From positions 17,422,001-17,486,000 of the forward strand of contig NW_027266286.1 in assembly GCF_022045235.1 (NCBI RefSeq): a DNA stretch of 64,000 nt. Direction: 5' to 3'. The stretch comes from Haliotis cracherodii. Taxonomy: Eukaryota. Under the pieces are notes generated by a model that saw nothing but the letters and a program-made list of their open reading frames with translations, was not told the origin of the DNA and did no database searches. Shown here in pieces: positions 13,823 through 63,882 of this stretch (its first letter is position 1; each line of letters begins with the position of its first letter). A program made the position numbers and the translations under genes.

Positions 13823-14695
13823 CTCATCACCCCATTCTCGGTATTCTAGACATTCTCATCACCCCAACATTCTCAGTATTCTGGACATTCTCATCACGTC
13901 AAACATTCTCGGTATTCTAGACATTCTCATCACGTCAAACATTCTCGGTATTCTAGACATTCTCATTACCCCAAACATACTCAGTTTTCTAGACATTCTC
14001 ATTACGTCAGACATTCTCGGTATTCTAGACATTCTCATAACCCCAAACATTCAATATCGCTGAGCATTCTCATCACCCATAATATTTCCAGCATGTCAGA
14101 TATTCTCATCACCCCAACAATTTCAGTATGCTAGACATTCTCATCACCCCAACGTTCTCAGTATTCTGGACATTCTCATCACGTCAAACATTCTCGGTAT
14201 TCTAGACATTCTCATCACCCCAAACATTCTCGGTATTCTAGACATTCTCATAACCCCAAACATTCAATAGCGCTGAGCATTCTCATCACCCATAATATTT
14301 CCAGCATGTCAGATATTCTCATCACCCCAACAATTTCAGTATGCTAGACATTCTCATCAACCCATCATTCTCAGTATGCTAGACATTCTCATCAACCCAA
14401 CATTCTCAGTATGCAGGACATTCTCATCACCCGAAACATTCTAAGTTCACTGGACATTCTCATCACCCCAATTATTCTCAGTATTCTAGACATTCTCTTC
14501 ACGCCAAACATTCTCAGTATGCTTGACCTTCTCACCACCCCAAATATGCTCTGTATGCTAGACATTCCCATCACCCTAAACACTTCAGTAAGCAAACCAT
14601 TCTCATCACCCCGAAATATTTTCAGCATGTCAGATATTCTGATCATACCCGTATCAATGTGCTATAAATTCTCACCACGCCAAACATTCTCAGTA
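13823..14695. repeat. ~36-bp minisatellite with a ~213-bp higher-order duplication
   Basis: cattctcatcaccccaaacattctcagtattctaga; variant block repeated at 14048 and 14261. Confidence 0.92.
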
Positions 14696-14865
14696 ATTGC
14701 AATATTGCTAATACTAATATTGCGGTGTAAAACCATACTCACTCATTTTTCACTCACTATGCTAGACACTGTCAGTACGTTATCACAAACTACTTTGTTA
14801 ACATCAGCAGAAAACATCTTATCATCTACAAATGATAACAAACACAAATTCGTAGGCATTTTAAA

Positions 14866-14871
14866 TTTATT
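14866..14871 (-). terminator. Candidate polyadenylation signal (AATAAA) of the prohormone gene
   Basis: Minus-strand AATAAA about 1.1 kb after the stop, at the end of non-repetitive AT-rich sequence. Another AATAAA overlaps the stop codon. Confidence 0.3.
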
Positions 14872-15988
14872 GACGTCAGCAAATAACGAGACACATCCCT
14901 TTAACATCACAACCTTTGGTAGCCATGGTTACGGTGGGAAATCACACAGTTTGATATTTTGGCAATAGCGATGGATGTGATTAAAGGTGTAATTTGATGA
15001 GCAATATGTTGAATATATAGATGTACTTGTGACCCTTATATAGTAAAGATGGTTTATATGCAAAAATAATGATAAATGATTTGGAGTTCCTAATGAAAAA
15101 TTGAACTTAGAAATATATGTTATCCTCCAGGGAAAGCGTCCATGTTTCATCACTCCAAACGTGTGAATATACTGCGAGCAGCTAGAGCAGTAGGTTGGTG
15201 GGCCGTACATCCAGTACATCTTATATTGATTCAGCAGAGGCATTTAAAGTGATATTCTCTAAAATAAATATGATTTTTAAAATACTTCAGAACATAATAT
15301 TTGTGTGAGGATATGTTGTCTCGGCTCTTTCCGTAAACGACTGCTACGGAAAGTGCCGAGTGATATGATACAGCTACCATATATGGACATTTCCTAAAAC
15401 CGTCGAGTTCTTTATCGTCATACCAACACGCACATACACTAATAGGGAGTCACGTCGAAAAACCAAAATTGTTCACACGTCAACAGATTATTATTTTCTT
15501 TTTACTCAGAGAAATGTGTAAACAAGTTTGATTTTAGGTTATGTTTCATTTCAGTGATGCATGTAACATCGAGATCACGGGGAAGAAAATTAAGCGAGTG
15601 GGATACCAGATCGTGGGGATGGAATAAACACTAAACATTATGCACAATCTAGCACGAGATAACTTTACATTTCTACAACATTGCACATCCACAGAAAAAT
15701 AAATTGGTTGTTGTCTATTCATGTATGGAGATAATTTGTATTTAGTCCCTTTCAATAAATATATTTCACGTTTTCCTAAATATTCCATTTCGCAGACTTG
15801 CCACAGCCATGAACGTCTTTGTACAACACGTGACAAGACACATCACATCCGGTGTTCACATCTCGTCCGTACCGAGAGACGGCGAGATCACAGATACGTC
15901 ACGAGACGTGTTTCTCCAGATGTTAAAGTACAGTTTGATAGAAGTTACTTTGTCTTCCCAACTTCGATCTGCCTATCAAATTGAATCT

Positions 15989-16006
15989 TTATTTTTTCCT
16001 GTACTC
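15989..16006 (-). CDS. Prohormone terminal coding exon (EYRKK-stop), followed by AT-rich 3'UTR
   Basis: Polypyrimidine acceptor gttcttgctttcag|GAG TAC AGG AAA AAA TAA; phase 0 matches exon 3; total CDS 1299 nt = 432 aa + stop. Confidence 0.65.
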   Translation of the reverse strand, partial: EYRKK

Positions 16007-16063
16007 CTGAAAGCAAGAACGAAATACACCATTATAAATTCTGCATCATGATACGATGTACAT

Positions 16064-16330
16064 GTTTGTTTGTTTATTGTTTAACTCCGCACGCAGCAAT
16101 ATTCCAGCTATATGACGGCGGTCTGTAAATAATCGAGTCTGGACTAGACAATCCAGTGATTGACATCATGAGCATGGATCCACCCAACTGGGACACCATG
16201 ACATGCATCAACCAAGTCCGCGAGCCTGACCAACCGATCCCGTTACTCGCATCTTACGACAAGCATAGTCACCTTTTACGGCAAGAATGGGTTGCTGAAG
16301 ACCTATTCTACCCCGGAATCTTCAAGGGTC
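16064..16330 (-). mobile_element. Family B, full length, intronic
   Basis: Identity to other copies. Confidence 0.85.
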
Positions 16331-16380
16331 CCACAACCAACGGTCCTTTTTCTGACTAAGCACAGCTTTTATCGTGCCTA

Positions 16381-16632
16381 GACCGCCTCTGTGGTCTAGT
16401 GGTAGAGCGTCCGCCCGGAGAGCGTCATACCAAAAGACGTTAAAAGATGGTACTTGTTGTTTCCCTGTCTGGTGCTCGGCATTAAGGGGCTAAAACAAGG
16501 ACTGGTCGGCTCGGAGTCAGTATACTATGTCTGAGTGGGGTATTCATGTTAAACTGCGGCATGGTATCTCAGTGTGCTAGCACTATAAATCGGCATCAGT
16601 CCGGACTAGTACAAGCAGCGACACAAACACAC
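16381..16632 (+). mobile_element. SINE family A (B box deleted; breaks at CA tract)
   Basis: Identity to other copies. Confidence 0.85.
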
Positions 16633-16820
16633 ACTTTTATCAACTCGTGTTGATATATTTGATATCAAAAGGCACTCGGGTGAGATTCTCTATACATGAT
16701 TATTTTAAGCAGCGTTGATGATATTTAAATATATACTGGTTTTATTCATTTATATCTGGCTCTACATTAAGATTGGCGAAAAAATTGGTATAAAATAACA
16801 GTACTATCACTTCACACAGC

Positions 16821-17177
16821 GACCGCCTCCATGGTCCAGTGGTAGAGCGTCCGCCCGGAGAGCGTTCGATCCCCGGCCGCGTCATACCAAAAGACGTTAA
16901 AAGATGGTACTTGTTGTTATCCTGTCTGGCGCTCGGCATTAAGGGGCTTAAACTAGGACTGGTCGGCTCTCAGTCAGTATACTGTGCCTGAGTGGGGTAT
17001 TCATGTTAAACTGCGGCATGGTATCTCAGTGTGCTAGCACTATAAATCGGCATCAGTCCTGACTAGTACAAGCAGCCACACACACACACAGACACACACA
17101 CACACGTGCATGCATGTCGCTATATAAGTGTAATAATCCTGGACGCGACGTTAAGCCCAGATTCACCTCACCTCACC
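16821..17177 (+). mobile_element. SINE family A
   Basis: Shares a diagnostic head deletion and 5' flank with the 41293-41628 copy. Confidence 0.88.
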
Positions 17178-17254
17178 GTCTATCGCGCCCATGAGCGTAA
17201 TTTGATAAGATGGCAATTTTAAACGTCCGAATGGGTCCAGTGTATTTATCCAAA

Positions 17255-17372
17255 TATACTACTCAAAAGTAGTTAAGGACCATCACGATGTAGAGGCTAT
17301 GCAATTTCCATGACAGATTACTAGAGTAATATGAAAGAATCGTGTGGTCCTTAACTTATTTTAAGTAGTATA
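17255..17372. mobile_element. Tc1-type MITE (TA-CTACTCAAAAG TIR)
   Basis: ~35-bp imperfect TIRs, TA flanks. Confidence 0.75.
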
Positions 17373-17426
17373 GAATAGTGAGTATGGTGTTGACAACTAC
17401 TGATTCCTAGTCGCTTCCCAACGTAC

Positions 17427-18025
17427 CTCGTAGTATGGGGAATCTTCAGACAGCGCACTAGCGAGGGCCAAGAGTCTTTTATAGGCCTGCTCATAGTCCC
17501 GTTTCTGTTGAGGGATGAAGGCTCCCCAGTGTGTTTGGGGCTCCCGGCTGAAGGGATAGAAGTACCTTTTCCTGATACCTGGCAGATTGCTCATCATCTG
17601 GCGTTTGCTGGGCACGTACTCCGGCTCCTCCTCCTGCTGCTCCACCTCCTCGTATGTCTCAGGGTAGGACTCTTCCACTGGGTACCGCTCGTACGGCTCG
17701 TAGGCTGCCACCTGGGGTGCCTGCTGGTACATGTCTAACAGGGTGGCCACCTCGTCTTCGTACCTCGGCTCGGGACGGTACAGCTCGTACAGATCCTCCG
17801 CGGTGAGCTGTTGGGGGTAGCCTTCTTCATCTCCGTAGGAGTAAGCGTCTATATCGTCTAGGAGGTCTCGCTTGATCCTCTTGGAGCGCTTCACCTCGTT
17901 GTGTATCATGTCCCCCTCTGTGATGGCACGGCTACGTCTCGAGCTGCGACGACGGCGGTAGGGGTAGTAACTGAGATCGTAGGGGTAGTAGTCTTGCTGT
18001 GGGGGGTCATTGTTACGTCCCTTCT
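17427..18025 (-). CDS. Prohormone coding exon 3 (Tyr/Glu-rich, multiple KR/RR/RKR sites)
   Basis: Acceptor tacag|AG completes GAG in frame; continues into ORF 17397..17909; donor GAG|gtacgt, phase 0. Confidence 0.9.
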
Positions 18026-18950
18026 CTGTAAGTAGATGGCAGGGTTACAGAAACTAACCTTCTTGTGATGGTAAAGGATCAGTATGAGTATTATCTACGT
18101 AGATGATACATTTTTTTCCAGACTGTGGTACTAATACGCTTATAGATAAGGGACTGGCGATTTAATATTCTTGAGCGCCTAGCATTAGAATATTGTTTCA
18201 GTGCTTCAAAACATACAGTTTCTTTTCACTGAAAAGTGTAATTATCTTTTCCAAGCATTTAAAGAAAAAACAAGGTCCTCCCTAGAATATGAAATTATCG
18301 GCTCCTAACACACTACAATACATCCTGCCAACATGACATTTACATTCCCTGGTCGCACGTGTTCGCCCAATAGTTGTGGAAAGCCATTTCTTTTCTTTAC
18401 GATCTATTTAATACTATCTTGTGTACTTGACGGTGAAAATTGGGATCATTTGAGTTATTACTAGTTAATTTTACTAGCCAAACCGAACATGTGCAAGGCC
18501 CGGGTGAGGGGTCAAGGGCAAAAGCTGAAAAGACTTGCGTTATCGATTGAAATTGTTTTCTTATTACATATTCCATAATCTATGAGAGAAATGTCTCTCT
18601 GTTGAGTGACGATGAGTGATGGCCACTGTTCTCAGTCGAATATGATTGACATATAGTATATGACAACAAGAAAATGCACACTGTTGCAAAATACCATGTT
18701 GGTCTCATCAAGTGAATCCAAAAATATTAAATGCATTCTTGACAGTTGCATACAAATGTAAACAGTCTTACAAATATATTTCTTCTTTCCCATTCACTCG
18801 ACAAGGCGAACGTGTTATGAAGTGTGAATATCCGCATTTGAGATTTGAGCAGATACTGTTATCTGGATAAGTGCGGTATAACAACAAAAACAACATTACT
18901 TATAATAATATCCACAATGTATTTCTGTCTCCCCTCCCCCGCAGTCTTAC

Positions 18951-19517
18951 CATTTTCCCTCATGTAATAGTATAGGTCCAGGAGCGGCGTGTTCACATCG
19001 TTGTCAGCTTGAGCCACAGCTGCACCTTCTGAGTCGTCTGTCTGCTCAGCACCTTCACCCTCCTCCTCAGATTCCACCTCTTCCTCCTCAGCCGGCACAT
19101 CGTCATTAAGTTCCTCGACAGGAGCCCCAACTGTCTCCACAGGACCTTCCCCCTCACTGCTGTCGGCCAAAATGTCCTTCAGTTCTTCCTCCACAGAGTC
19201 AGCGTCAACCTCGCTGCCTGCATCGCCAACCGGGCCTTCTGGCAGCTGTTGTGTAATGGCGGGAACAACCGGCGCAACCTGTTCCTGTTCTTGATTGTCG
19301 TCTGCTTCCACTGCCGTCTGCTCCTGGGCGCTGCCGGCTACCTGATGCTCTTCGGGGATGAAGTCTTCCTGTTTAGCGGGTACTGCGATGACGGAGCCCT
19401 GTTTATCTAAGCTACTGTCGTCTGCTATGACGGGGACGGCGGGATCACTCTTCTTCTTTTTTAAACGAGGGTCGTTCTGTTGGTTGCCGAACAGGATCGC
19501 CTCCTGGTCGCGCTTGG
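18951..19517 (-). CDS. Prohormone coding exon 2 (KR-DQEAILFGNQQNDPRL-KKKK plus long acidic spacer)
   Basis: Acceptor ttgcag|CC completes GCC (Ala) in frame with exon 1; 567 nt open, GC-rich; donor G|gtaag, phase 1. Confidence 0.92.
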
Positions 19518-20125
19518 CTGCAACGATAAGAAGGCGAATATAGACAGTATACACAGTTTCAACAGTTTAAACACACCGCTACCTGATAGACATTTTATTC
19601 GTATAATCCTTCTTCATCGATGATGCAGATACGATGTCAACCCATATATGGCGCTTTGGGGGCACCCTAGTGGTTAAAGCGTTCGCTCGTCACGCCCAAG
19701 ACCGGGTTCGATCCCCCACATGGGTACATGTGTGAAACCAATGTATGGTGTTCTCCGTCGTGAGATTGCTGTAAAACTAAAAGCAGCATACAACCACTCA
19801 CCCACTCATGCTAATAATGCCCAATGCATTCACCGCTTTCTGAGTTTCTGAACACTGTAAGGCTGTGTTCCCTGGGTGAATGAATTGAGATTAAAATTAA
19901 ATTCTTCCCAATCTGCCTGAATAAATATTATGTGAGTGAGGCAGCTTTAAACTTTATTTCAGCCACTGAGTGCCAACTTGATGTGAGAGGGAAGCAAATG
20001 TGACGTACGTAGGCGTTTATCCCTTTACAGAAACCCTGAGCACAGGTTTCGTGTAAGACCGAAGATCATAATCGGTCCGTTTGGGTTGGAGCCCAAGATC
20101 ATCGGTTCGTGGCATGTTTATAATA

Positions 20126-20362
20126 TATACTACTCAAAAGAAGTTAAACAACACGCGATTATTTCATATTACTGGAGTTAATTTGTAGTTCAGATTCTTT
20201 CATATTACTAGCCGAAATCAGTAGTACCGATTCTTTCATATTGCTAGCCGTAATCTGTTGTTCCGATTCTTTCATATTACTAGAGTTATTCTGACATGCT
20301 ATAATATTAACTATAGTAATACGAAAGATCCGGGTGTTCTTTAACTTCTTTTGAGTAGTATA
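20126..20362. mobile_element. Tc1-type MITE, same family as 17255
   Basis: tactactcaaaagaagttaaa / tttaacttcttttgagtagta; internal ttctttcatatt repeats. Confidence 0.8.
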
Positions 20363-20364
20363 CG

Positions 20365-20583
20365 TTTGTATTTTAACGCCACATCCGGTAATCTTCCACC
20401 TTTTATATGACGGGTATGTAAATAATCGAGTCTTGACCAGGCGCTCAAGTGGTTGACATCATTAGCATCGATGTACGCAACTGGATACGAACAAAGTCAG
20501 CGAGCCTGACCACCCGATCTCGTCGCCTCTTTCGACAAGCCTGGGTTGCTGAAGACTAATTCTAACCCGGATCTTCACGGGTC
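20365..20583 (-). mobile_element. Family B, single-hairpin variant
   Basis: Only one copy of the 22-nt unit. Confidence 0.8.
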
Positions 20584-22050
20584 GACTATATTTTGAAAGA
20601 AACGCTGTACATATTTAACACTACATATGTCTTCCTGAACGTAACTACGCGTTGCTACAACAGGAATGACGCCCACGAGAGAGCTTGATCTAGCTTCTTT
20701 AACATACAACATGACGGCCGTGGTTACAGGTTGGTGTAGATTTCCACACAAAACTATAGATCTTTGAGCAAATTGATTTACCATACTGCGTTCTGAGTTG
20801 GGCAAGAATTTGCTTCATTAGTGGAATCCATCGCTTTGACGGTACGAAAATAAACGGAAAACAAATCTATTAATTGACAACCAGAGAAGTAAAACATGTG
20901 AACATCCCACCAAAGCATGCTCTAGGCGATACATTTCTCGGGATTTAGTTACGAATGTACGTAGACGGGTTATACGTTACCATGGCAACGGAACATACAG
21001 AGTAACCTGTCGTGAATATGCTGAAGTTTAATATTTAGATCAGACACACAAACCGGAAAATTTTGAAATCTGCTTCACTAAATTTTATTCTGAAAGTGTC
21101 CAAATATATTTTTCATATTCCACAATATTTTTGTAGTTATGCTGGTATATTATTTGATGCATGAACAGTTGGTTGTTAGTGGCTTCTGGCTCTGTGCCAA
21201 AGAAAGCAAGAACATAAGTGAGGCAAATTAAATATATCGTGTCACTGTAAACTTCAGTGTAATAAGATATATGGACAGACCCAGACTGCCACCTTCATTA
21301 GTCCATTGACAAGGTTATTGACATTCTGAAATTTAACAAATAAATAATGAATGTCCTACCACGACTAAATAGGAACAGCCTACCTATGTTCGGCTTTCAA
21401 TTTGATGTCATAAATGACACATCACATGACATATTTTAACCCATTTCCAGAGCTTGATATTTACTGAAAATGTTTAACTTCGCTGAACCTCAGCATCAGA
21501 TATGCAATATCCTCTTTCTTAGTCACAGATGATACAATTTTAAGGCTGTTGAAATGTCCTTCAGTGAAACGCGGGAACATGGAGCTCCCCATCACAACAT
21601 GTGCACTGTTCCCGATCAGTCTGCATGAAGCTATGCACTCACAGCCTCGTTTTCGATCCAAGATGGCGAAAGTGTGAAAAAGGTCAATAGTTTAAATATG
21701 AACCTGTCTAATTGCAACGGTTCAGCATAATCGAAGGGATTCTCTATGATTGCTGCCCAGGTTGGCACATTTAGTTTGTCACTTAACAAGTGTTTGCACC
21801 CCCGCGCCCCTACCCCCACCACCCCCACAACATAATTTATGTTCGAATGAAATGCATTACAGAATTCCCCTCTCAAAAATCAATGAGGAATACAGTAGGC
21901 TCTTAAATAAATCATTAATAAATACCAATGGAGAAAAACCCTTTGTCTTGTCTATTATCTAAAACAATATTGGTAAATGTTATATTTACGAACATGAACA
22001 GATACACGGCGAACAGCTGACTAACCGGTCCCGTCTCCTCGGCGTGAACA

Positions 22051-22261
22051 TAAACTGTCGGGCCAAAAAAAGTATACACTTAAAAATGTGATTTGGACAA
22101 ATTGTTCTCAAAACATTACTGATGAAGACACTGCAAACTTAAGATCCAAAACACTACTATGGCATCGATATCGAATACATCGCCATTGAAAAAACATTTC
22201 TTGTGTTTAATTTTAGCCACCACCAAACATGAGTGTATAACTTCTTTTGCTCAGCAGTGTA
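22051..22261. mobile_element. Tc1-type MITE
   Basis: Imperfect TIRs actgtcgggccaaaaaaagtatacac / gtgtataacttcttttgctcagcagtgta. Confidence 0.55.
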
Positions 22262-22847
22262 TGTGCTAATCAAACTCTCTACAAAGACGGATGACTTTCT
22301 GAAAGACGTCCTTTTATCAACAAGGTCATCGGGTAAGAGGTACTTGTCGATTTCGTCGTTCTAATCAATTTCCGAAACTTTCGCATTGAATCATTATCAA
22401 AACAGATCGATAGTCAAACGTGTTTAATGCATTTTATGCGTTACTTAACCAACCGTAAATCTGAATCACTTCTAGAATGTTTTCGTGGATTCTCGTCTTC
22501 AAAACCGTTCAAGTACAGACCCAGGAGCGTCGCTGGTTCTGCCCCGTACTAAATAATGGCAAGAAGACACCTCTAGTCACTGGAGGGTGATGAAAGCCGA
22601 CCACAGGGCCTCTTGGCTGGAATACATTGTCCGTAGAACGGTGACTTATTGGCAGGAGGTGGTGGAGACACCCTTTGGCTGAGTGTATAATGGCTTCTGT
22701 GTACATGATTTACAGGCGCTGTCCTTGTTCCAGCTTGGAGAAGGATTTTGTGCCGGTTGGCTTGTTAGGGATGTTGGTATGTAATTTAACGCCACCAGCT
22801 ATATGACGGCGGCCTCTAAATAGTATCACAAGACATTCCTGTAATGA

Positions 22848-23127
22848 GTGAGTGTGTGAGTTGGGTTTAACGCCGCTTTTAACAGTATTACAGTTATATC
22901 GCGGCGTGTCAGCTTAATGTGGGAGGTAAGCCCGAAGTGATGCAGGTCTCAGACGTTTACTACTTCGGTGAAACCCACGAGCACGGGTATGATGCTGACA
23001 AACCTAGAAACATAATCAGGGCGAACCGGGATTCGAACTTATAATCATAGGTTTCTGGCGCGCCCAAGGGACGCAACTCTGCACAGCGAATAGCGGCGCC
23101 TTAGACGACTGGGCCACCCGTGCCCCC
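22848..23127 (-). mobile_element. SINE family D, full length, intronic
   Basis: TSD tcctgtaatga. Confidence 0.9.
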
Positions 23128-25446
23128 TCCTGTAATGAATATTGTGAATATAAGTGACAAAACCCTTTCCATAATCTAAAGCGATCGATCTGCTGTACGA
23201 TTCCGACAATTCCGACTACATCATGTATTTATGGATCGATGCTCATATTGTCAATCACTGGACTGTCTGGTCCAGACTCGATTATTTACAGACCGCCGTC
23301 ATATAGCTGGAATATTGCTGAGTGCGGCGTTAAACAACAAACAAACAAACACTATCAAATAGTGCTCCCTTGCCTCCCCCTGGGGAGTATACAAGCCCCA
23401 CCAGCATTCATTCTCACCCTAGCGGGTACCCATCGCTTCTGATTAAATAGATGACGTAATATTGTGCCAGTCAATTCACGGTGGGTGTGTTACATAGCTG
23501 GTTATATTTCAGCCAAATGACACATCATAACTATGTGGGAAATCGAACGCGGATTTTCCATAACGAGCCAAGGCTCTCTTAGGTGTTTTAATCAGATTGG
23601 TTCTTGTTCTACGAAGAACTATCTTTATGTTTGAAAAAAAAGGGGTCAGAGAAACTAATGAGGATTATAAATATATACAATTACGTACGAAATAGGACAA
23701 AAACAAATTAGGACAATTTAACTATATTCATGTTTCAATACAAATTACGTGAAAACAATTTATTTTACATGCTTTTAAAAATGTCCAACACAATCACGCT
23801 TGGGCACACCAGAAATGGGCTTTCCATATTGTGTCCTAGTACAACGGGGCTCCTGCGTGCAAGACGTGAAGAACGAACGCTTTAACCACTAGGCTACCCG
23901 ACCGCCCCGTGAAAGGCGTGAAGATCGAACGCTTTAACCACTAAGCTACCAAACCGCTCCGTTTCACGTTTGAATAATATAAGGAATAGGAAACGAAGTC
24001 TAAGAAAAGGGTAAAGAGTTTTCACCGGCAATGACACCAACACAACCGTGGCTGCGTGTCAAGGTGCCTCGCGGGGATCGGGAAGTCTTTAATTATCAGT
24101 GGGGAATTAGATACAAGCCTGCTCAGTCTCTCTGAGCCCAGGATAAGACCATGTAGCATTTCAAGGTGAGCGATCAAGTTAGAATCTGGTTTCTTTGGCC
24201 TAAGCATTTTCTTCACATTCTAATTAAACTTACTTTGTCAAAGGTTTGTTTAAGTTTCTTGTGTAGACGTAAATTAGGAAGAACTTAAAACTTAACGCGA
24301 CCAACCTAAGTTTGTATGGCGCGCGTTATTGATGGCTACATAACGAATGAAAAAAAAATTATATTTGGAAATCGTACTCGATAAATTTGTAACCGATATC
24401 TGAAATGATATCAGATAATGAATATATATTTTTAATCGTATAAAAAAGAAGTCTCATTTTACAACATAGATCTATGTGTAACATAATCATTTCTAATAAA
24501 TCCTAACCAGTAAACCGTTGATTCATTCTGATTGCGATTTGGCAAGACTCTAAATCCACAATTAGCAACGAATTTTTCTGAGAAGGCGAGAGTTTATTTT
24601 TTCCGTCCTCCCAGTGGACTCGACCTAGGGTAAGGTAGAATACGTCACGGACGCTGTGCTGATATCACGTGACGCTCCCCAATTAGATGAAGTTGTATCC
24701 CATCCCTGCCTCCGCGAGACTGTGCCAGGCGTATACCGTATCAGCCATATTCTGTCGGGAGTTGTTTCTGAGACTGCGCCAGTCCAGATCTACTGAGTCT
24801 TGTTCGCCACGTTTGTCCGGGAGTGTCACCACGCTAAAACACGGCTTCGATTGCCGATGCTGGTTAATGTTTGAGTCCCAGCCTCCCACGTCGTCACATC
24901 TATAGAGTATTGATAGATAATAGGGACGAAAATTCATTTCTCACTCACGTCAGTTCGGACAACTATAGATAGAACGGAACCGTCGTATTAACGAGTTTTC
25001 GCTGCCTGAACTCCATCTTCGGTCTTTATACCATGTAGCTTTGTTGAAGGCCCACAGTAAACCAAAATTGTAAACCTATAGAAAGTGTGTTTTGTGTTGT
25101 GATTGGCTAATTTGGGTCACATGACCAAATGTCAAAGGGTGAAAATATGATTTGCATTCCCTGAAGCAAGCGACGTAATCACTGTGTAGAAATACATAAT
25201 TACTCAGCATTTTTTGCATACTAATTAACATGAATTAACATTCATATCACATATTTTGATTTTCTCTATTCATGGGAATTATTGGGATTTTTAATTAAAA
25301 AAATTGATAATGAAATAATTACCAAAAACACAATCACCATAGCAACAACAGAACGTTCGATGTTGACGCCTCACAACCGAGTAAGTACGAGGTGTTAAAG
25401 AGTGCGCATGTTTTTTTCTAAATAAAACAATAGGTTTACAATATCA

Positions 25447-25609
25447 ATAAATACTATGTGTGTGTCTATTTCCGAGATTTTATCGAGTATTGGCATCTTG
25501 GAAATTTTCATTCGAGCCCCTCAAGCTAACGCTTTCGGGTCTCGAGATGAATTTCCAAGATGCAAATAGTCGATAAAATCCCGGAAATAGACACACACAT
25601 AGTATTTAT
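25447..25609. repeat. Long palindrome (~70-bp arms)
   Basis: ataaatactatgtgtgtgtctatttccg... reverse-complemented around tcaagctaacgcttt. Confidence 0.9.
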
Positions 25610-26214
25610 CTTCTAAGCATCTCCCTGAAAGGCAACATTTGATATTGACCTAACCCGTTTTTAACGTTGAAAATCAGTTTCCTACAACATTGTCTTTGAA
25701 TGCTGCTTCAGTCAATGATCCTTCAACTACCTAAAGAGAGTATGCCTGCAGTGATGTTATAAGATGACAAACAAGCTTCCCATTTCACATAAAGTTTTCT
25801 GTGTCCGAACAGAATAGCAAACAACAGAACGTGTGAAGGAATTAAGGGACATTTCCAGCCTCAACACGTCCTGTTAACAATAACACCCCTTCGAGGAATC
25901 AATAGCGGTTGCCCTTGCATTTGTCTAATCAAAGGCAATGCTACACTTTCCAGCCGCCTTCAATTCCGTTTTGTGTTCTGATGTGTCCATATGAACGAGA
26001 ACTAGATTTTGTTCAATTCAACAATTGCATGTTACAATTATGCCCGATAAGGTTTTTGCAGCTTTAAAAATGGACATTTTCAGTGAGCCCCAAAGGACAC
26101 TGATCTTGCCTCGTCCTTTCGTCAACTGGTGAAGCAAGTTCAATCCCATTTTGTCATGATACATGTTAAGATGATATTGGATTGGTAAAACGATACCTGA
26201 TATCATATGCTTAC

Positions 26215-26329
26215 CAACTTCAATATTTTCACCAGCAGCTAGTTCCGGGGCCTTTTCTACGGGAGCAGACGACACAAAGGCCCACACCAGAACGAGACTG
26301 ACCCCCAGGACGGAGAGGCTTCTCATCAT
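26215..26329 (-). CDS. Prohormone (NVP-like/prohormone-2-type neuropeptide precursor), coding exon 1 with signal peptide
   Basis: GCCGCC-ATG context at 26329; MMRSLSVLGVSLVLVWAFVSS|APVEKAPELAAGENIEV; upstream acceptor ctttcag (exon starts 26365); donor G|gtaag, phase 1. Confidence 0.88.
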
Positions 26330-27267
26330 GGCGGCAGACGACTGAGACAGCGGTTTACTTAGATTCTGAAAGTACAACAATAGGTCACGTAAGGTATAAT
26401 CAATGATATTAATATGGAATATTATCAATCAGGCTTGATAGAAACCCTAGAGGCATCAAAGATTTACCCACGTGAATTGATCTGATGAAGGTTTTATAGG
26501 TGAGTACTTTACTTCTAATTGCGACCAGTCAAGCTTCGCTGAAATGACGGGACCTATCAGTCAGCACCATACCCGTGCTCGTGGGTTTCACCAAAGTGGG
26601 AAACGTCTGATGCCTACATCACTTCGAGGGTCCCCACGGTAAGCAAACACGCCGACATATAAGTAATATACTGTTCAAAGCGGCGTTAAAACTAACTCAC
26701 TCACTCTGTCATCTACCATTCATCATCAATCATCTAACATCCACCATCTACTATCCACCATCTATTATCTTCCGTTTATCATCTACCATCTAGCATACAT
26801 CAGAACTGTTTGTGCTTTCAACCAGGCACCTAGAAGCTAGAACAGCCTTCCAGTGGTTAACGACCTCTACAGAACACACTGATTTCACTTCCTGCAACGA
26901 TCCAGAGACGCCTTGTCAAACTTTGGGTTAAAATGTCCCTGATCGAGGCATAACTCGGAATCAAATACTCTTCGTACTTTTCCCCGCGTCATTCTTCATG
27001 ACAAATGATACGCGGTTTGAAAAAAGAAAAGAGAACATGTACATATGATTTCAAACCTCTGTTGGAAATTAAACCCAACAGACGCATAACAGTGCCAAAG
27101 ATTACAACTGTGAACGCGTATTTCAGCTTGTCATTTAATGAGTAGGTTTCTCGGCAGGATAAAGCCAACGGATATAACGGCATCCGTTGTTGTCTTTAAA
27201 TTTAATTATATTTAATGCTTTTTAAGACAATGTTTACTTTCAATACAGGACACAGTTTATTCTCCAT

Positions 27268-41904: not shown

Positions 41905-44900
41905 TTATTTATCATCCAACATCATTCTTCCAACTTTTTCAATTTGTAGACTCTAATTAGCAGGGTCTTCAGTGTAAAAAGTACTGCTATCAGCTTCAGT
42001 AGCAGAGCCATTAGTGATGTCATTTGATTGTGACGTCATGGTAACCACTGACGTCACAATGGTCTGCAAAGCATTGTGATGTAATTTCATTGCAGCGATA
42101 TCTACAGTGTAGATATCGCTTGATCTAATCCAAGCGATATCTCCTGTGGAAGCCAGTTTTGGATGATAAATTATCTCAACCTCCGTATCTCCAGCTGTCT
42201 CCCTGATGAAAGCCTCCAAGCTGCATCAATAAACCCAGTCACCATACAGGAAAAGTATTAGGCGTGTGGAATATTAGCTCTGAAACAATGTAAATGATTT
42301 TGTTGGTAATATGTATCAATGAAGGCCAGTGTCTAGACTGTATCTTGCGCACAGAATGTGACCATTAAATTGGAGCTGATGTCGCAACGAACCAAGGGAG
42401 CCACATTTAGATGGCTGATGTCTGTGTTGAAGGCAATTGTCTACAGAGGTCATCAAACTACTCGTTAGCAATTCTCGCCAGCCTCGCAACAACACGACTT
42501 CATTTCTCGCTCTGTCTCTATGTACCTAATGAGGTGAGCTCCAATGACTGGTCTCGTTGAATCTCGTTGAATCTCGTTAATTCTCGCTGTGTTTGTGCAT
42601 CACATTAAACATGTAAAAGAGGTAAATCGGTCAGCGCTAGCAAATTTTACTTAAGTCGTTTATCTTATTTAAGTATTAATTTATTGGGCTGATTAAAACG
42701 ATTTTAAGAAGTTGATTACCCTATCTCAGTTTCACACATGGTACTAGTTTCTACAGCTATAGGCTGGCAATGGGCTTCAGAACGCTGGTCGCATCATACG
42801 TTAAAAGATGGCGATTGCCGTATGCCTGCCTGGCGTTAAGTGCTGTTCGGTTCGGAGTCAGTATATCGGGCTGGCACCATAAAACCGTCGTTAGTTCCGA
42901 CCAGAACAAGCAGCCTCCCACACACTCACACGCATGCATGTCGCTTTATAAGTGCACTTATCTTGAAAGCGGCATAAGCTCCATTTCTTCTCACCTCACT
43001 GGGAGCTGACAGGCCGTGGTACAACTGAACCACTGATTCTACTTGGAGTCGAACATGTTCCCACGTTATCCCAACCATGAAGTGAAGACGCGGATACGAT
43101 GGACACTCGCCTCGAGATAGCCTCGCAAGTTGCCTCGTCATCTCCACGAGAAGTGTACAAGCAATTGCTTGTATTTCGCCCCGAGGAGAGGTCGTCAGTG
43201 AGATTAGTAACTGTATACAGGACCATTGTTATTGGAAGCACGATAGACATTATAGTACAGAGTTACTTCCCGGGATGATCAGTCGAGAAGGGAATTTCTT
43301 CAATTACATTTTTGTCTCGAAATAATAACATGGCTCCCCGTGGGACTGTTTCTCCATGTCAGCTACTCATACACGTGTCTAACTTCTTGTTTGCAAGTTC
43401 TACATCACATCATGTTTATGTTTCTTTTGCAATAGAGATAGACACATCCCACACTTAAGACTATTGGCCAAATCAGCCTTAAAGATTCGATTTTATCAAA
43501 CTAGTGCAGGGGACTAGTGGATAATGGTCATAAGTTTGTAGCTAGTTCTGCTTGAACGAGACAAAAATGTTTACCATGGTTACATTTCCTGTAAGGTTTA
43601 TTCAGTTCCAATTTGTAGCAAAACTGAAGCATTGAGAACTGGTTCGGAACTATAGCCCTCAAATGTTACCTGTCAATGGGGACTATCATCATTGAATCTT
43701 TGCTTGTCCTTCCTTAGCACAATGCCGTAGAATGGGGATAGTGGACGATCACGGCTGGCCCACGGACACCGCAATTAGCTCACTCAACCTGCCACCTTCC
43801 CTAACTCTTGACTTTCTCAAATGACTTCTAGCTAATTCACGACATATTTTTTATTGTTAAAGCTTCCGGTACTGTCTCAAAGTACTGTAGCTGCCTAAAT
43901 GCCTAAAGCATAAATGTTTTCTTCCTGGACTGATATCGGATTAAAAGCTAGAAACTAAAAACTATCAATACCGACAATGGCTGAGTATTCGACCTACGTG
44001 TTGATATTCAGGTCACGCCTACGTATGCGTCTCCTTAAGTTTTGTTTGAACTCCCCCCGCGGAAGCCAGATTCCCACACCAACACATTGATTAATAGCAA
44101 CATTTCCATAAATGATATTTTCACACATCCGGATTGTATTGTGATTCGTAGGCAGCCAGCCAGGTGCTGCGCACACAAGGTTAGAGGGGATCACGTTACG
44201 TTCTGACACCCAGAGACACGTGGCGAACAGAACAGAGTAGGACTACCATTTCCCACTCATCTTCCCGAGACAAGCGGAACCACTAGACTATATCAAAGCC
44301 TAATTTATGCCTTTGCAACATCAAGGCCATTTTTCTTGGCTCGACCCTGGCGTCACCTCGCGTAGATCACGAGTTTTGCCCTTTGTAATGAAAACGCGAT
44401 GTCCAACCAGATCGCTGTTCTCATCTCGTATAGCTTCACAAAGATGGCGACTACCATAGGTGACGACCTAGTCGATCAGATAGCGAAAAATTCGCCATTT
44501 CATCCCCGACACAAAAACATAGGCAATCTTTGGGGAGTTTAAAAGATGAAAAAGACATGTTCGGGTCAACGAAGACAGGCAGCCGTAAATCACTTTCATT
44601 CGTGGATGTTGATTTTGTGAAGCGTTCTCTGGTTGTACTATCGATATGTGGTAAAGTCCAATCATATTTAGCACAGGAAAGTGGGCTTGATGTGACAAGG
44701 GTGGAAACAAGACTTTGATAAAAAGGCTAGTAGACGCTATTGCCTCGTTATCTCTAAACCGTCAGCGTGATTTTGCATCATAATGTAAATATGAAATGAT
44801 TGCCAGTGGATGCCCAGCTTGGCCCAGTATCTTAAGCGACATAATAGTAATGGAAAACATGGTAAATATGCGGACCTCGAAATGTCACGCTTCATCACAA

Positions 44901-47534: not shown

Positions 47535-47961
47535 CGACCGCCCCAGTGGTCTAGTGGTAGAGCGTCCGCCCGGAGAGCGGCAGCTCCGAAGTTGGATCCC
47601 TGGCCAGGTCATACCAAACGACGTTAAAAGATGGTACTTTTTGTTACCCTGCCTGTCGCTCGGCATGAAGGGGCTGAAACAGGGACTGGTCGTAGTATGC
47701 TGTGTATCAGTGGTGAATTCATGTTAAACTGCGGCATTGTATCTCAGGGGGCTAGCACTTTATAAAATCGACATCAGTCNNNNNNNNNNNNNNNNNNNNN
47801 NNNNNNNNNNNNNNNNNNNNNNNNNNNNNNNNNNNNNNNNNNNNNNNNNNNNNNNNNNNNNNNNNNNNNNNNNNNNNNNNNNNNNNNNNNNNNNNNNNNN
47901 NNNNNNNNNNNNNNNNNNTGCAATAATCTTGGAAGCAACGTTAAACCCCATGTCACCTCAC
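47535..47961 (+). mobile_element. SINE family A spanning the assembly gap
   Basis: Head and body before the Ns, tail after. Confidence 0.8.
47780..47918. other. Assembly gap (139 N)
   Basis: Direct; falls at the CA tract of a SINE. Confidence 1.
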
Positions 47962-48536: not shown

Positions 48537-48997
48537 CATGGCCACCAGTGGAGGGAACACACGCACAGCCAGGTTAACCCACTGGGTTCATTCAACGCTG
48601 CTGACAAGTATGCATGGCCACCGGTGGAGGGAACACACGCACAGCCAGGTTAACCCACAGGGTTCATTCAACGCTGCTGACAAGTATGCATGGCAACCAG
48701 TGGAGTGAACACACGCACAGCCAGGTTAAGCCACAGGGTTCATTCAACGCTGCTGACAAGTATGCATGGCCACCAGTGGAGGGAACACACGCACAGCCAG
48801 GTTAACCCACAGGGTTCATTCAACGCTGCTGACAAGTATGCATGGCCACCGGTGGAGGGAACACACTCACAGCCTGGTTAACCCACAGGGTTCATTCAAC
48901 GCTGCTGACAAGTATGCATGGCCACCAGTGGAGGGAACACACGCACAGCCAGGTTAACCCACAGGGTTCATTCAACGCTGCTGACAAGTATGCATGG
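48537..48997. repeat. 76-bp minisatellite, 6 copies
   Basis: catggccaccagtggagggaacacacgcacagccaggttaacccacagggttcattcaacgctgctgacaagtatg. Confidence 0.95.
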
Positions 48998-49547
48998 GCA
49001 CTAGAGTAGCATGATCCAGAACATAAACTGACAGGGAGGCGTGGAGGCCTCCCCAGTAGGCTATATCAACGCATAATGCAATTTACCCGCAGTAGGCTAT
49101 TCCCCTACAGCCGTCTAATGCCCTTCGGTAAGGTACTTCACCGCATAATGCAATTTCCCATCTGTAATCTATCCCCCACAATCACCCATTTCCCTTCTAT
49201 AGGTTATTTTACAACGAAACACAATTTCCCTCAGCAGGCTATTTCCCAACAGTAGGGTATTCCCCCACAATTGTATTTTCCCCTCAGTAGGTTTTCACCG
49301 CAATAAAGTAATTTTCACCACAGAAGACCGTACCCCATCAATAGATTATTTCTCTCAGTTGCCTATTTCACCATAAAATGCACTTCTCCACAGAGGGGTA
49401 TTCTCCAACAATCATCTTTTTCGCCTCAGTGGATTATATTGCACCTCAGTAGGCCATTCCTCCACAACTGTCTATTTCCCCTAGTAAGCTATTTCTTACA
49501 CAATACCTAAAGGCTACTAAGGATTCCCCTCGTCACCTATGGAGTCC

Positions 49548-50856: not shown

Positions 50857-51566
50857 TGTCCATTGTTTCCGTTTTGTGTGTCCAATTCCAGCCTGTTAAC
50901 TTACGGCCTGTGTGAAGTTGGGTGATGTATTGCTTTGGGTAAGGTAGTATCTTATCACCCACGCCTCTGACTAAAGAAAGTTCCCTCAGTCTAAAGTTCA
51001 GGCAGTCATGTTATGATCACAGCAAACACGTTTTTCAATTATGAAGTTATGTTTATCCTTGCCCAATTACAACCTCATCTATTGCTGAACTTGCCTCCCT
51101 GAAAACCTGCCACTTCGCTCTCAGCGTCCTATACATAATGGATGGTGGTTGACAACGTCTTGACTGCCTCATCCACGCTCACTGCAGGAGGCGTGACGTG
51201 TTCCAGCAACATGAAATATGAAACTTCTAGTGGTTAGATTGATCACAATGTACCAACATGTAGGCCTACCCTACCCTACCCTACACTACCCAACACCCAC
51301 CACTACACGACTCCATATCCTACTCCCCCACCCTTGCCTCACCCATAATCCCTATCCCAGCCACCACCCTATAATACCAAACACCCACTCCCTTGCCACA
51401 ACCCCTTCTCACCTATCACACCCCCACACCCTAATCCCATACTCCAAACTCAACCTCCCCGCTACTCCACTCATTGACCTCTAACCTACTCCCTTAGCCT
51501 CCGCGCCATAAGCCCTCGCCCTATCCTACCTACACACACACCCTGGCTCCTATCCACCCTTCTGCC

Positions 51567-52220
51567 CACCCTATCCGACCATCCTATCCGACCACCCTAT
51601 CCGACCATCCTATCCGACCACCCTATCCGACCATCCTATCCGACCACCCTATCCGACCATCCTATCCGACCACCCTATCCGACCACCCTATCCGACCAGC
51701 CTATCCGACCCACCCTATCCGACCACCCTATCCGACCCACCCTATCCGACCACCCTATCCGACCCACCCTATCCGACCACCCTATCCGACCCACCCTATC
51801 CGACCCACCCTATCCGACCCACCCTATCCGACCCACCCTATCCGACCCACCCTATCCGACCACCCTATCCGACCCACCCTATCCGACCACCCTATCCGAC
51901 CCACCCTATCCGACCCACCCTATCCGACCACCCTATCCGACCACCCTATCCGACCCACCCTATCCGACCACCCTATCCGACCACCCTATCCGACCCACCC
52001 TATCCGACCACCCTATCCGACCACCCTATCCGACCCACCCTATCCGACCACCCTATCCGACCACCCTATCCGACCACCCTATCCGACCACCCTATCCGAC
52101 CCACCCTATCCGACCACCCTATCCGACCACCCTATCCGACCACCCTATCTGCCCACCCTATCCGACCACCCTATCCGACCACCCTATCCGACCCACCCTA
52201 TCCGACCACCCTATCCGACC
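51567..52220. repeat. 13/14-bp minisatellite
   Basis: caccctatccgac(c). Confidence 0.97.
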
Positions 52221-52712
52221 AGCAACTACTCTATGGAATGTAACACACTGTCACTGCCGCAAGTACCCAGCTTCCTATACACGGGGTGGTCGTGATCCGG
52301 GTCGTTATGATATGCGTGTTACAAGATCGGCAGAACACAATCAATGTCTTCACATTTGATGCGAGGAAGATTGATTGTCTTCATTGCCGGTTTAAAGTAT
52401 CACAGCGGAAGATCAACGGTATCAACGTTTGTCCCAGTATGATTGTCAACAAGACAAGATGGCGGTGTATATTTGTACCACTGCAAAATAGCGGTGTATA
52501 ATTCTATACCTATATATTCTTACCATTGCAAGCCCGCATGTCCACAAGATTGTTGGACTTCACAGGTCAAGGTTATGCTGTCTGAAAGGCTGACCAGTGG
52601 ATGAATAGATACACTATACATATTTGCTGCGAATGCGCTACCTGAAAATGGTGTTGGTAACATCAACCTGTTCAAGTCGACTTCAACATTCAACCGATTC
52701 TAATTTTCTTAG

Positions 52713-63324: not shown

Positions 63325-63882
63325 ACGTGTCCCGTGAATACTGATCTGATGACAGATCTGTGGGGTGAGAGGAGGCATTTCTTTAATTGGGAGGGGTCAG
63401 TCAGCGTGTCCCCTGAACATTGCTGTGATGTTAGATCTGTGGGGTGGGAGGGGACATCAACCCAACAGGGAGGGGTCACCTAGCATGTCCCCTGAACAGT
63501 GTTCTGATATCAGATCTGTGGGGTGGGGGGAGACGTCGACCCAACAGGGAGGGGTCACCTGGCATGTCCCCTGAACAGTGTTCTGATATCAGATCTGTGG
63601 GGTGGGGGGAGACATCAATCCAACAGGGAGGGATCACCTAGCATGTCCCCTGAACAGTGTTCTGATATCAGATCTGTGGGGTGGGGGGGAGACAACCCAA
63701 CAGGGAGGGATCATCTAGCATGTCCCCTGAACAGTGTTCTGATATCAGATCTGTGGGGTGGGGGGGAGACATCAACCCAACAGGGAGGGATCACCTAGCA
63801 TGTCCCCTGAACAGTGTTCTGATATCAGATCTGTGGATTGGGGGGAGACATCAACCCAACAGGGCCAGTCAGCATGTCCCCT
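63325..63882. repeat. 79-bp minisatellite, ~7 copies
   Basis: atgtcccctgaacagtgttctgatatcagatctgtggggtggggggagacatcaacccaacagggagggatcacctagc. Confidence 0.93.

Follow-up and report, generated by a model that had tools for sequence, protein, structure and literature searches.

We identify, on the minus strand of a 64,000-nucleotide stretch of the Haliotis cracherodii genome (contig NW_027266286.1, positions 17,422,001 to 17,486,000; hereafter the window), a four-exon gene whose 432-residue product is best explained as a precursor of the GNXQN/prohormone-2 (NVP-like, baratin) family, which probably passes through the neuronal secretory pathway and is predicted to be cut into a few non-amidated peptides, likely neuromodulators. 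The structure of the gene, its splicing and, at the level of sequence, its family membership are directly established here. The spliced product is identical, at 432 of 432 residues, to the H. cracherodii RefSeq protein XP_071113598.1, which is titled 'uncharacterized protein' and is a member of the sequence cluster of an H. rufescens protein. The gene model therefore pre-exists in RefSeq, and an earlier note on this DNA, which had proposed a mollusc as its source, was right on that point. Both the family and its prohormone-2 link are already known, the abalone member being unnamed in RefSeq. Earlier papers on GNXQN/GNQQNxP include Conzelmann 2013 (PMC3890597), Zhang 2018 (PMC5996578), De Oliveira 2019 (PMC6425005) and Realis-Doyelle 2021 (PMC8398477).

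The reality of the gene is confirmed. Its four coding exons (Table 1) join into a single open frame of 432 amino acids with one stop, across three GT-AG introns of 6697, 925 and 1420 nucleotides in phases 1, 1 and 0, so that the four-exon, phase-consistent splicing first proposed from the letters alone stands, both by the frame and by the identity with XP_071113598.1. All three junctions (skips of 1420, 925 and 6697 nucleotides with CT..AC ends) are present as spliced in contigs of each of the four runs examined, which come from four studies out of 24 runs listed, are RNA by our guess, and attest splicing rather than tissue. In three of these runs (X2, X6 and X13) a single contig of 2.46-2.57 kb covers all four exons. 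At the 3' end the contigs extend to 14855-14889, adjoining an AATAAA signal, and give a 3' untranslated region (UTR) of about 1.1 kb whose exact end contigs cannot fix. At the 5' end a splice acceptor at 26365 opens the first coding exon, and the contigs carry 13-98 extra letters placed outside 14700-27200, which means that at least one non-coding exon lies further upstream. One protein common to three H. rufescens RefSeq accessions hints at alternative UTRs.

Membership of the GNXQN/GNQQNxP (prohormone-2) family is supported by similarity and by layout. A protein search with the third coding exon gave four matches among 728 candidates, to abalone proteins (90-99%) and a Solemya protein (36%). 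A search of 1.84 billion representatives with a six-sequence profile then recovered 92 proteins at E<=0.001, most of them unnamed; the named relatives come from gastropods, bivalves, the cephalopod Octopus, the brachiopod Lingula, the annelid Owenia and the nemertean Tubulanus. No named arthropod protein was matched. The GN-x-QN motif is present in 45 of the 92, and the C-terminal block pattern matched 60, the other 32 including N-terminal fragments and variants missed by the pattern. In the abalone protein the GN[QHR]QN motif occupies G49-N53, following K40-R41. Like other GNXQN/GNQQNxP proneuropeptides, this protein has a signal peptide, a KR and a GN[QHR]QN peptide closed by KK, an acidic spacer, R-x-K-R-D-L, KR-Q-x-L/M-S, F-Y-P...H-W-G-A-F, a further KR and a helix of the form Y-x-x-L-x-x-L-A-x-x-L. 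It differs from them in the KR inside its C-terminal helix, absent from most homologues, and in the lack of an amidation signal, whereas the oyster relative has a large amidated peptide (PMC8398477).

The published record, given here and below as it stands in the passages covered of each source, agrees with this assignment. De Oliveira et al. 2019 (PMC6425005) clustered the GNXQN family with insect prohormone-2 through the shared GN[QHR]QN motif, as the earlier note's prohormone-2/NVP-like link would have it, and the molluscan members printed in their supplement, compared by eye, share the blocks and layout of the abalone protein, HWGAF included. As the family already has a name and its prohormone-2 homology was published in 2019, the assignment is no new discovery. 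Relatives have been confirmed by mass spectrometry (MS): in a scallop the GNQQN peptide SEEGIGFGNQQNLPK, starting directly after KR (PMC5996578), and further members in oyster ganglia (PMC8398477), Platynereis (PMC3890597) and the nemertean Lineus (PMC8557429). Neuronal expression of relatives is reported in oyster and flatworm larvae (bioRxiv 10.1101/2023.01.04.522730; also PMC13551398). Several family records (P0008, P0078, P0100 and P0106) bear misleading automatic names, namely CWC22 homolog (Patella), IWS1 homolog (Lingula), Ycf2-like (Aplysia) and LEO1-like (Octopus), likely on account of their acidic composition. A 645-residue member, P0012, also holds an ATP synthase OSCP domain (Pfam, E 1e-39), and here two adjacent genes have probably been fused in the model.

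We aligned the abalone protein with 26 near-full-length homologues, hand-chosen from the 92. Mean identity to the abalone protein is 0.52 in the GNQQN peptide, 0.60 at the KRxxRxKR site, 0.37 in residues 370-378, 0.51 in the WGAF peptide and 0.37-0.43 in residues 404-429, and only 0.10-0.21 outside the peptide islands and cut sites. K40, R41, K60, R277 and R280 are invariant across the 26, and KR368-369 is kept in 23 and 25 of them, KR402-403 likewise in 23-25. The abalone protein has a hydrophobic N-terminus (residues ~2-24, by hydropathy only) and 12 multibasic sites. Nowhere in the 432 residues does Gly precede KR, RR or KK, the sole Gly-basic pair being G230-R, which agrees with an earlier claim that Gly-KR amidation sites are lacking. 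Together the multibasic layout, the conserved cut sites and the 92 homologues bear out the prohormone identity first proposed. An AlphaFold model is of low confidence (mean predicted local distance difference test, pLDDT, 52; predicted template-modelling score, pTM, 0.17) and shows disorder over most of its length, broken by a few short helices; residues 405-420 are modelled as a single helix, with a confidence exceeded only by that of the signal peptide. KR410-411, which the earlier note had treated as a cleavage site, falls within this predicted helix and is not conserved among the 26, K410 being outside the four commonest residues of its column. It is therefore probably not a cut site, and one C-terminal peptide is expected rather than the two proposed before. 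Pfam recorded no family for the abalone protein (P0005, at E<=10), its exons, P0004 or P0008; sequences of the PDB gave 0 matches at E<=1, and structure matches in the ESM search were weak (TM-score<=0.31 by query).

Acidic, disordered and secreted as it is, the protein might be imagined to serve outside the nervous system, for instance in shell matrix or mucus, its basic pairs being incidental, and scallop transcripts do occur also in mantle and foot (PMC5996578). Yet the basic sites are invariant among 26 homologues, and relatives have yielded MS-confirmed ganglion peptides and a neuron-specific larval signal (PMC5996578, PMC8398477, bioRxiv 10.1101/2023.01.04.522730), which makes such a role highly improbable.

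The C-terminal HWGAF block bears on the insect peptide baratin, DNSQWGGFA, from a cockroach NVP-like precursor (PMC12604039). The beetle form, GRWGGFA, was identified by MS and inhibits the hindgut and ejaculatory duct (PMC3016957, PMC3140940), and beetle baratin transcripts are biased to the central nervous system (PMC13478068). The insect motifs that the earlier note named (KR-AQE..GNQQ and GRWGGF) are real and patchily distributed: the precursor of the stick insect Ramulus has both KRAQE..FGNQQN and QWGGF, ordered as in the abalone (Veenstra 2014, PMC4237046 Suppl. Fig. 10), in Apis just the GNQQN motif is present, in Tribolium and Zootermopsis just WGGF, and in Bombyx neither (PMC4237046; see also Veenstra 2019, PMC6585902). 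The insect precursors resemble the abalone protein in KRAQE...FGNQQN near the N-terminus (Ramulus, Apis), in the central R-x-K-R-D/E-L and in their non-amidated products. Near the C-terminus they carry W-G-G-F (Ramulus, Blattella, Zootermopsis, Tribolium) where the abalone protein carries W-G-A-F. The abalone protein differs in lacking an LKSELYG block and an NVP(IYQEPRF)-type peptide; the latter is absent from the 432 residues and unrecognisable in several insects too. The central block has RLKRDL or RFKREL as insect counterparts at a comparable place, a match that we give little weight because the site is of a generic furin type.

On a position-specific scoring matrix of the lophotrochozoan block, built from 25 distinct lophotrochozoan 6-mers, four insect baratin cores score 11.7-16.4 bits, where 0.0005-0.012 such matches are expected per 350 residues. 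The best feature match in the ESM Atlas is an arthropod 'prohormone-2-like' cluster (0.87 and 0.77), which is a lead only. We consider that the WGAF peptide is somewhat more probably than otherwise homologous to baratin, judging by these motifs. The correspondence may be the new part of this work. It was not found in print by a search that reached few subscription journals, no figures, and supplements incompletely, and the literature on baratin, NVP and molluscs consists, in the passages covered, of insect papers with no mollusc link. The insect sequences in the covered part of the 2019 supplement (PMC6425005) are all hymenopteran and without WGGF, and this may be the reason that the paper reports a single motif. 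A Bugula paper (PMC4990251) proved a false match as an NVP-like source, its peptide being BnVP-like.

Several points weigh against the reading of the gene as a neuronal precursor with a baratin counterpart. The motif test was post hoc and regex-anchored; it backs the likeness of HWGAF to GRWGGF claimed in the earlier note, which is still drawn from a short motif with one neighbouring block in reversed order. F or Y stands in place of the Trp in 20 of the 60 C-terminal blocks. In the lophotrochozoan proteins the KR-x-[ML]-x-S block stands before WGAF, whereas the similar insect KRFMVS stands after WGGF, and the helix-like block could be matched to insects for no more than 2 of 5 motifs. No named arthropod protein appeared in any sequence search (three word-based, candidate-limited protein searches and the 92-protein profile search with its mostly unnamed matches), and so the insect link rests on motifs. 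Neuronal expression and processing are taken from orthologues in print, and oyster transcripts are low in adult ganglia (PMC8398477). The main text of a paper on the ganglion peptidome of H. discus hannai (PMC6523705) makes no mention of the family, and the covered portion of its supplement holds no match for five motifs, the remainder possibly listing the family; none of the MAP peptides in the covered part of its Table 3 matches the abalone protein.

Accordingly, it is conceivable that the WGAF/WGGF likeness is convergent; in that case insects and lophotrochozoans would have just the GNQQN peptide in common, as published, and the C-terminal cluster would have been added in lophotrochozoans. 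Neuropeptides often contain aromatic-Gly motifs, which, with the reversed block order, the profile search devoid of named arthropods and the lack of WGGF in Apis and Bombyx (PMC4237046), favours convergence. We nevertheless hold it the less likely course of events: the Ramulus precursor has both motifs in the same order (PMC4237046), both motifs lie near the C-terminus, each followed by a K/R site and then by a helix-like block rich in Leu, and seven of the 92 homologues read GRWGA[FML], to be compared with the beetle GRWGGF. WGAF is the reading in 30 of the 92.

Returning to the neuropeptide precursor that we prefer, its working can be sketched as follows. Going by the orthologues in print, it likely enters the secretory pathway of neurons; prohormone convertases are predicted to cut at the conserved KR and RxKR sites, after which the basic residues would be trimmed. 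Three or four conserved peptides may thus be released, if conservation is a guide: the GNQQN peptide (42-57), the WGAF peptide (382-401), the Gln-led peptide (370-378) and a C-terminal helical one (about 404-429). These products would be non-amidated, with a pyroglutamate possible at Q370, and the peptide 382-401 is the likely counterpart of insect baratin. The conserved motifs would correspond to the bioactive products in lophotrochozoans, likely acting as neuromodulators, with modulation of visceral muscle or motor output expected by analogy with baratin. The long acidic spacers, poorly conserved in sequence, likely serve in packing.

Granins are acidic, disordered proteins with many basic pairs and a role in secretory granules. 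It is possible, if rather doubtful, that the abalone protein works mainly as such, as a pan-neuronal acidic dense-core-vesicle protein for granule formation or for sorting or chaperoning prohormones, its peptides being a side product or second function; this is compatible with the precursor reading and differs from it in which job is primary. The mature abalone protein has an isoelectric point (pI) of 4.27, a net charge of about -45 at pH 5.5 and no Cys, and its model is mostly disordered. All 27 aligned members have a pI of 4.15-5.04 and 7-14 multibasic sites, with a Gly-dibasic site in only five. A proSAAS cluster ranked fifth in the ESM feature search (0.79), below the bar of the tool. Acidic spacers are, on the other hand, common in ordinary prohormones, and none of the 27 members matches the Granin, secretogranin or ProSAAS families of Pfam at E<=10, the Pfam scan giving single stray matches only, one being the OSCP domain of P0012. 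In oyster larvae both neuron clusters express relatives together with 7B2, and in a flatworm larva relatives were used as 'a general marker for neurons' (bioRxiv 10.1101/2023.01.04.522730). Against a primary granin role, baratin-type peptides have reported bioactivity (PMC3140940, PMC13478068) and hymenopteran members look less acidic by eye. Searches of the granin literature showed nothing on the GNXQN family by title or abstract.

The likeness to vertebrate granins (chromogranins, secretogranins, proSAAS, 7B2), whose properties we give as general background, thus extends to acidity, disorder, many basic pairs and the broad neuronal expression of relatives, and stops short of any Pfam granin match. 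The acidic, Cys-free and disordered make-up of the protein suggests an additional granin-like role, as does the employment of relatives as a general neuron marker, and the protein is not filed here as a granin. A bolder proposal, in which vertebrate granins have their protostome counterpart in the GNQQN/NVP-like family, an ancient pan-neuronal acidic dense-core-vesicle protein that supports granules and releases GNQQN and WG[AG]F peptides (with an orphan receptor), both inherited from the last common protostome ancestor, appears unlikely at present. True homology to proSAAS or the granins is very unlikely.

Table 1. Features of the window, with positions counted from its first letter (MH+, mass of the singly protonated peptide).
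Feature	Position	Strand	Remarks
First coding exon	26215..26365 (coding 26329-26215)	-	36-nucleotide 5' UTR (26365-26330), ATG 26329 in GCCGCC context, signal peptide, residues to 38; acceptor and GT donor, hydropathy; covered in 4/4 runs
Signal peptide, residues ~1-22	26329-26264	-	hydropathy
Second coding exon	18951..19517	-	KR, GNQQN peptide, KKKK, acidic spacer; frame and run contigs
Predicted GNQQN peptide, residues 42-57	19462..19509	-	family-defining motif; MH+ 1857.91; no residue differs in H. rubra or H. asinina
Third coding exon	17427..18025	-	RRRR, R-x-K-R site, second acidic stretch, C-terminal peptide cluster; frame and run contigs
Central furin-type site R277-x-K279-R280, then D-L	17868..17879	-	R277 and R280 in 26/26 homologues
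Predicted 9-residue peptide 370-378	17574..17600	-	N-terminal Gln; predicted pyroglutamate form MH+ 973.45
Predicted 20-residue peptide 382-401	17505..17564	-	HWGAF block, candidate baratin counterpart; MH+ 2499.19
Conserved C-terminal helix, residues ~404-420	17448..17498	-	KR410-411 inside; predicted helix 405-420, pLDDT about 72-81; A416 and L419 invariant in alignment
Last coding exon	15989..16006	-	5 codons and stop; run contigs; RefSeq models share C-terminus
3' UTR, ~1.1 kb	14855..15988	-	AATAAA 14871-14866; unbroken contigs in 3/4 runs, two pieces in X1
TGACGTCA sites	14871, 28845, 36372, 38974, 42031, 42049, 49912		perfect matches
Dispersed repeat, eight copies	3259, 9242, 16399, 16839, 41585, 47554, 53025, 56120		none expected by chance
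207-codon open frame	10369-10989	+	looks on visual inspection like a degenerate LINE reverse-transcriptase fragment; nothing in Pfam at E<=0.01
Assembly gap, 139 N	47780-47918
Tandem arrays	718-1114, 13833-14645, 48537-49001, 51554-52221, 63328-63864

A cAMP-response element (CRE) at the promoter is a feature of granins. Perfect TGACGTCA sites, which are of the CRE type, number seven in the window, where 1.2 are expected. Two of them form a pair (42031-42056), 18 bases apart and about 15.7 kb upstream of the ATG, which is possibly regulatory. Inspection of these sites did not place the 5' non-coding exon. The head of the dispersed repeat looks tRNA-derived and SINE-like; no tRNA gene was called in the window, and the intronic copies of the repeat have very deep cover in the runs. 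Most of the remaining long open frames lie on tandem arrays.

As a gene find the abalone precursor is ordinary: its model was already in RefSeq, its family has been published, and it can now be given a name. The modest added value is a candidate second peptide common to insects and lophotrochozoans. Baratin homology, if it holds, and the granin-like reading may serve as leads. If the WGAF peptide is an orthologue of baratin, an insect orphan peptide whose activity on visceral muscle has been reported would gain mollusc and annelid counterparts, and these would provide a cross-phylum set of ligands for finding the baratin receptor, no receptor for peptides of this family being described in the literature passages covered. 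A granin-like role, if true, would bear on which proteins do the job of granins in protostome neurons.

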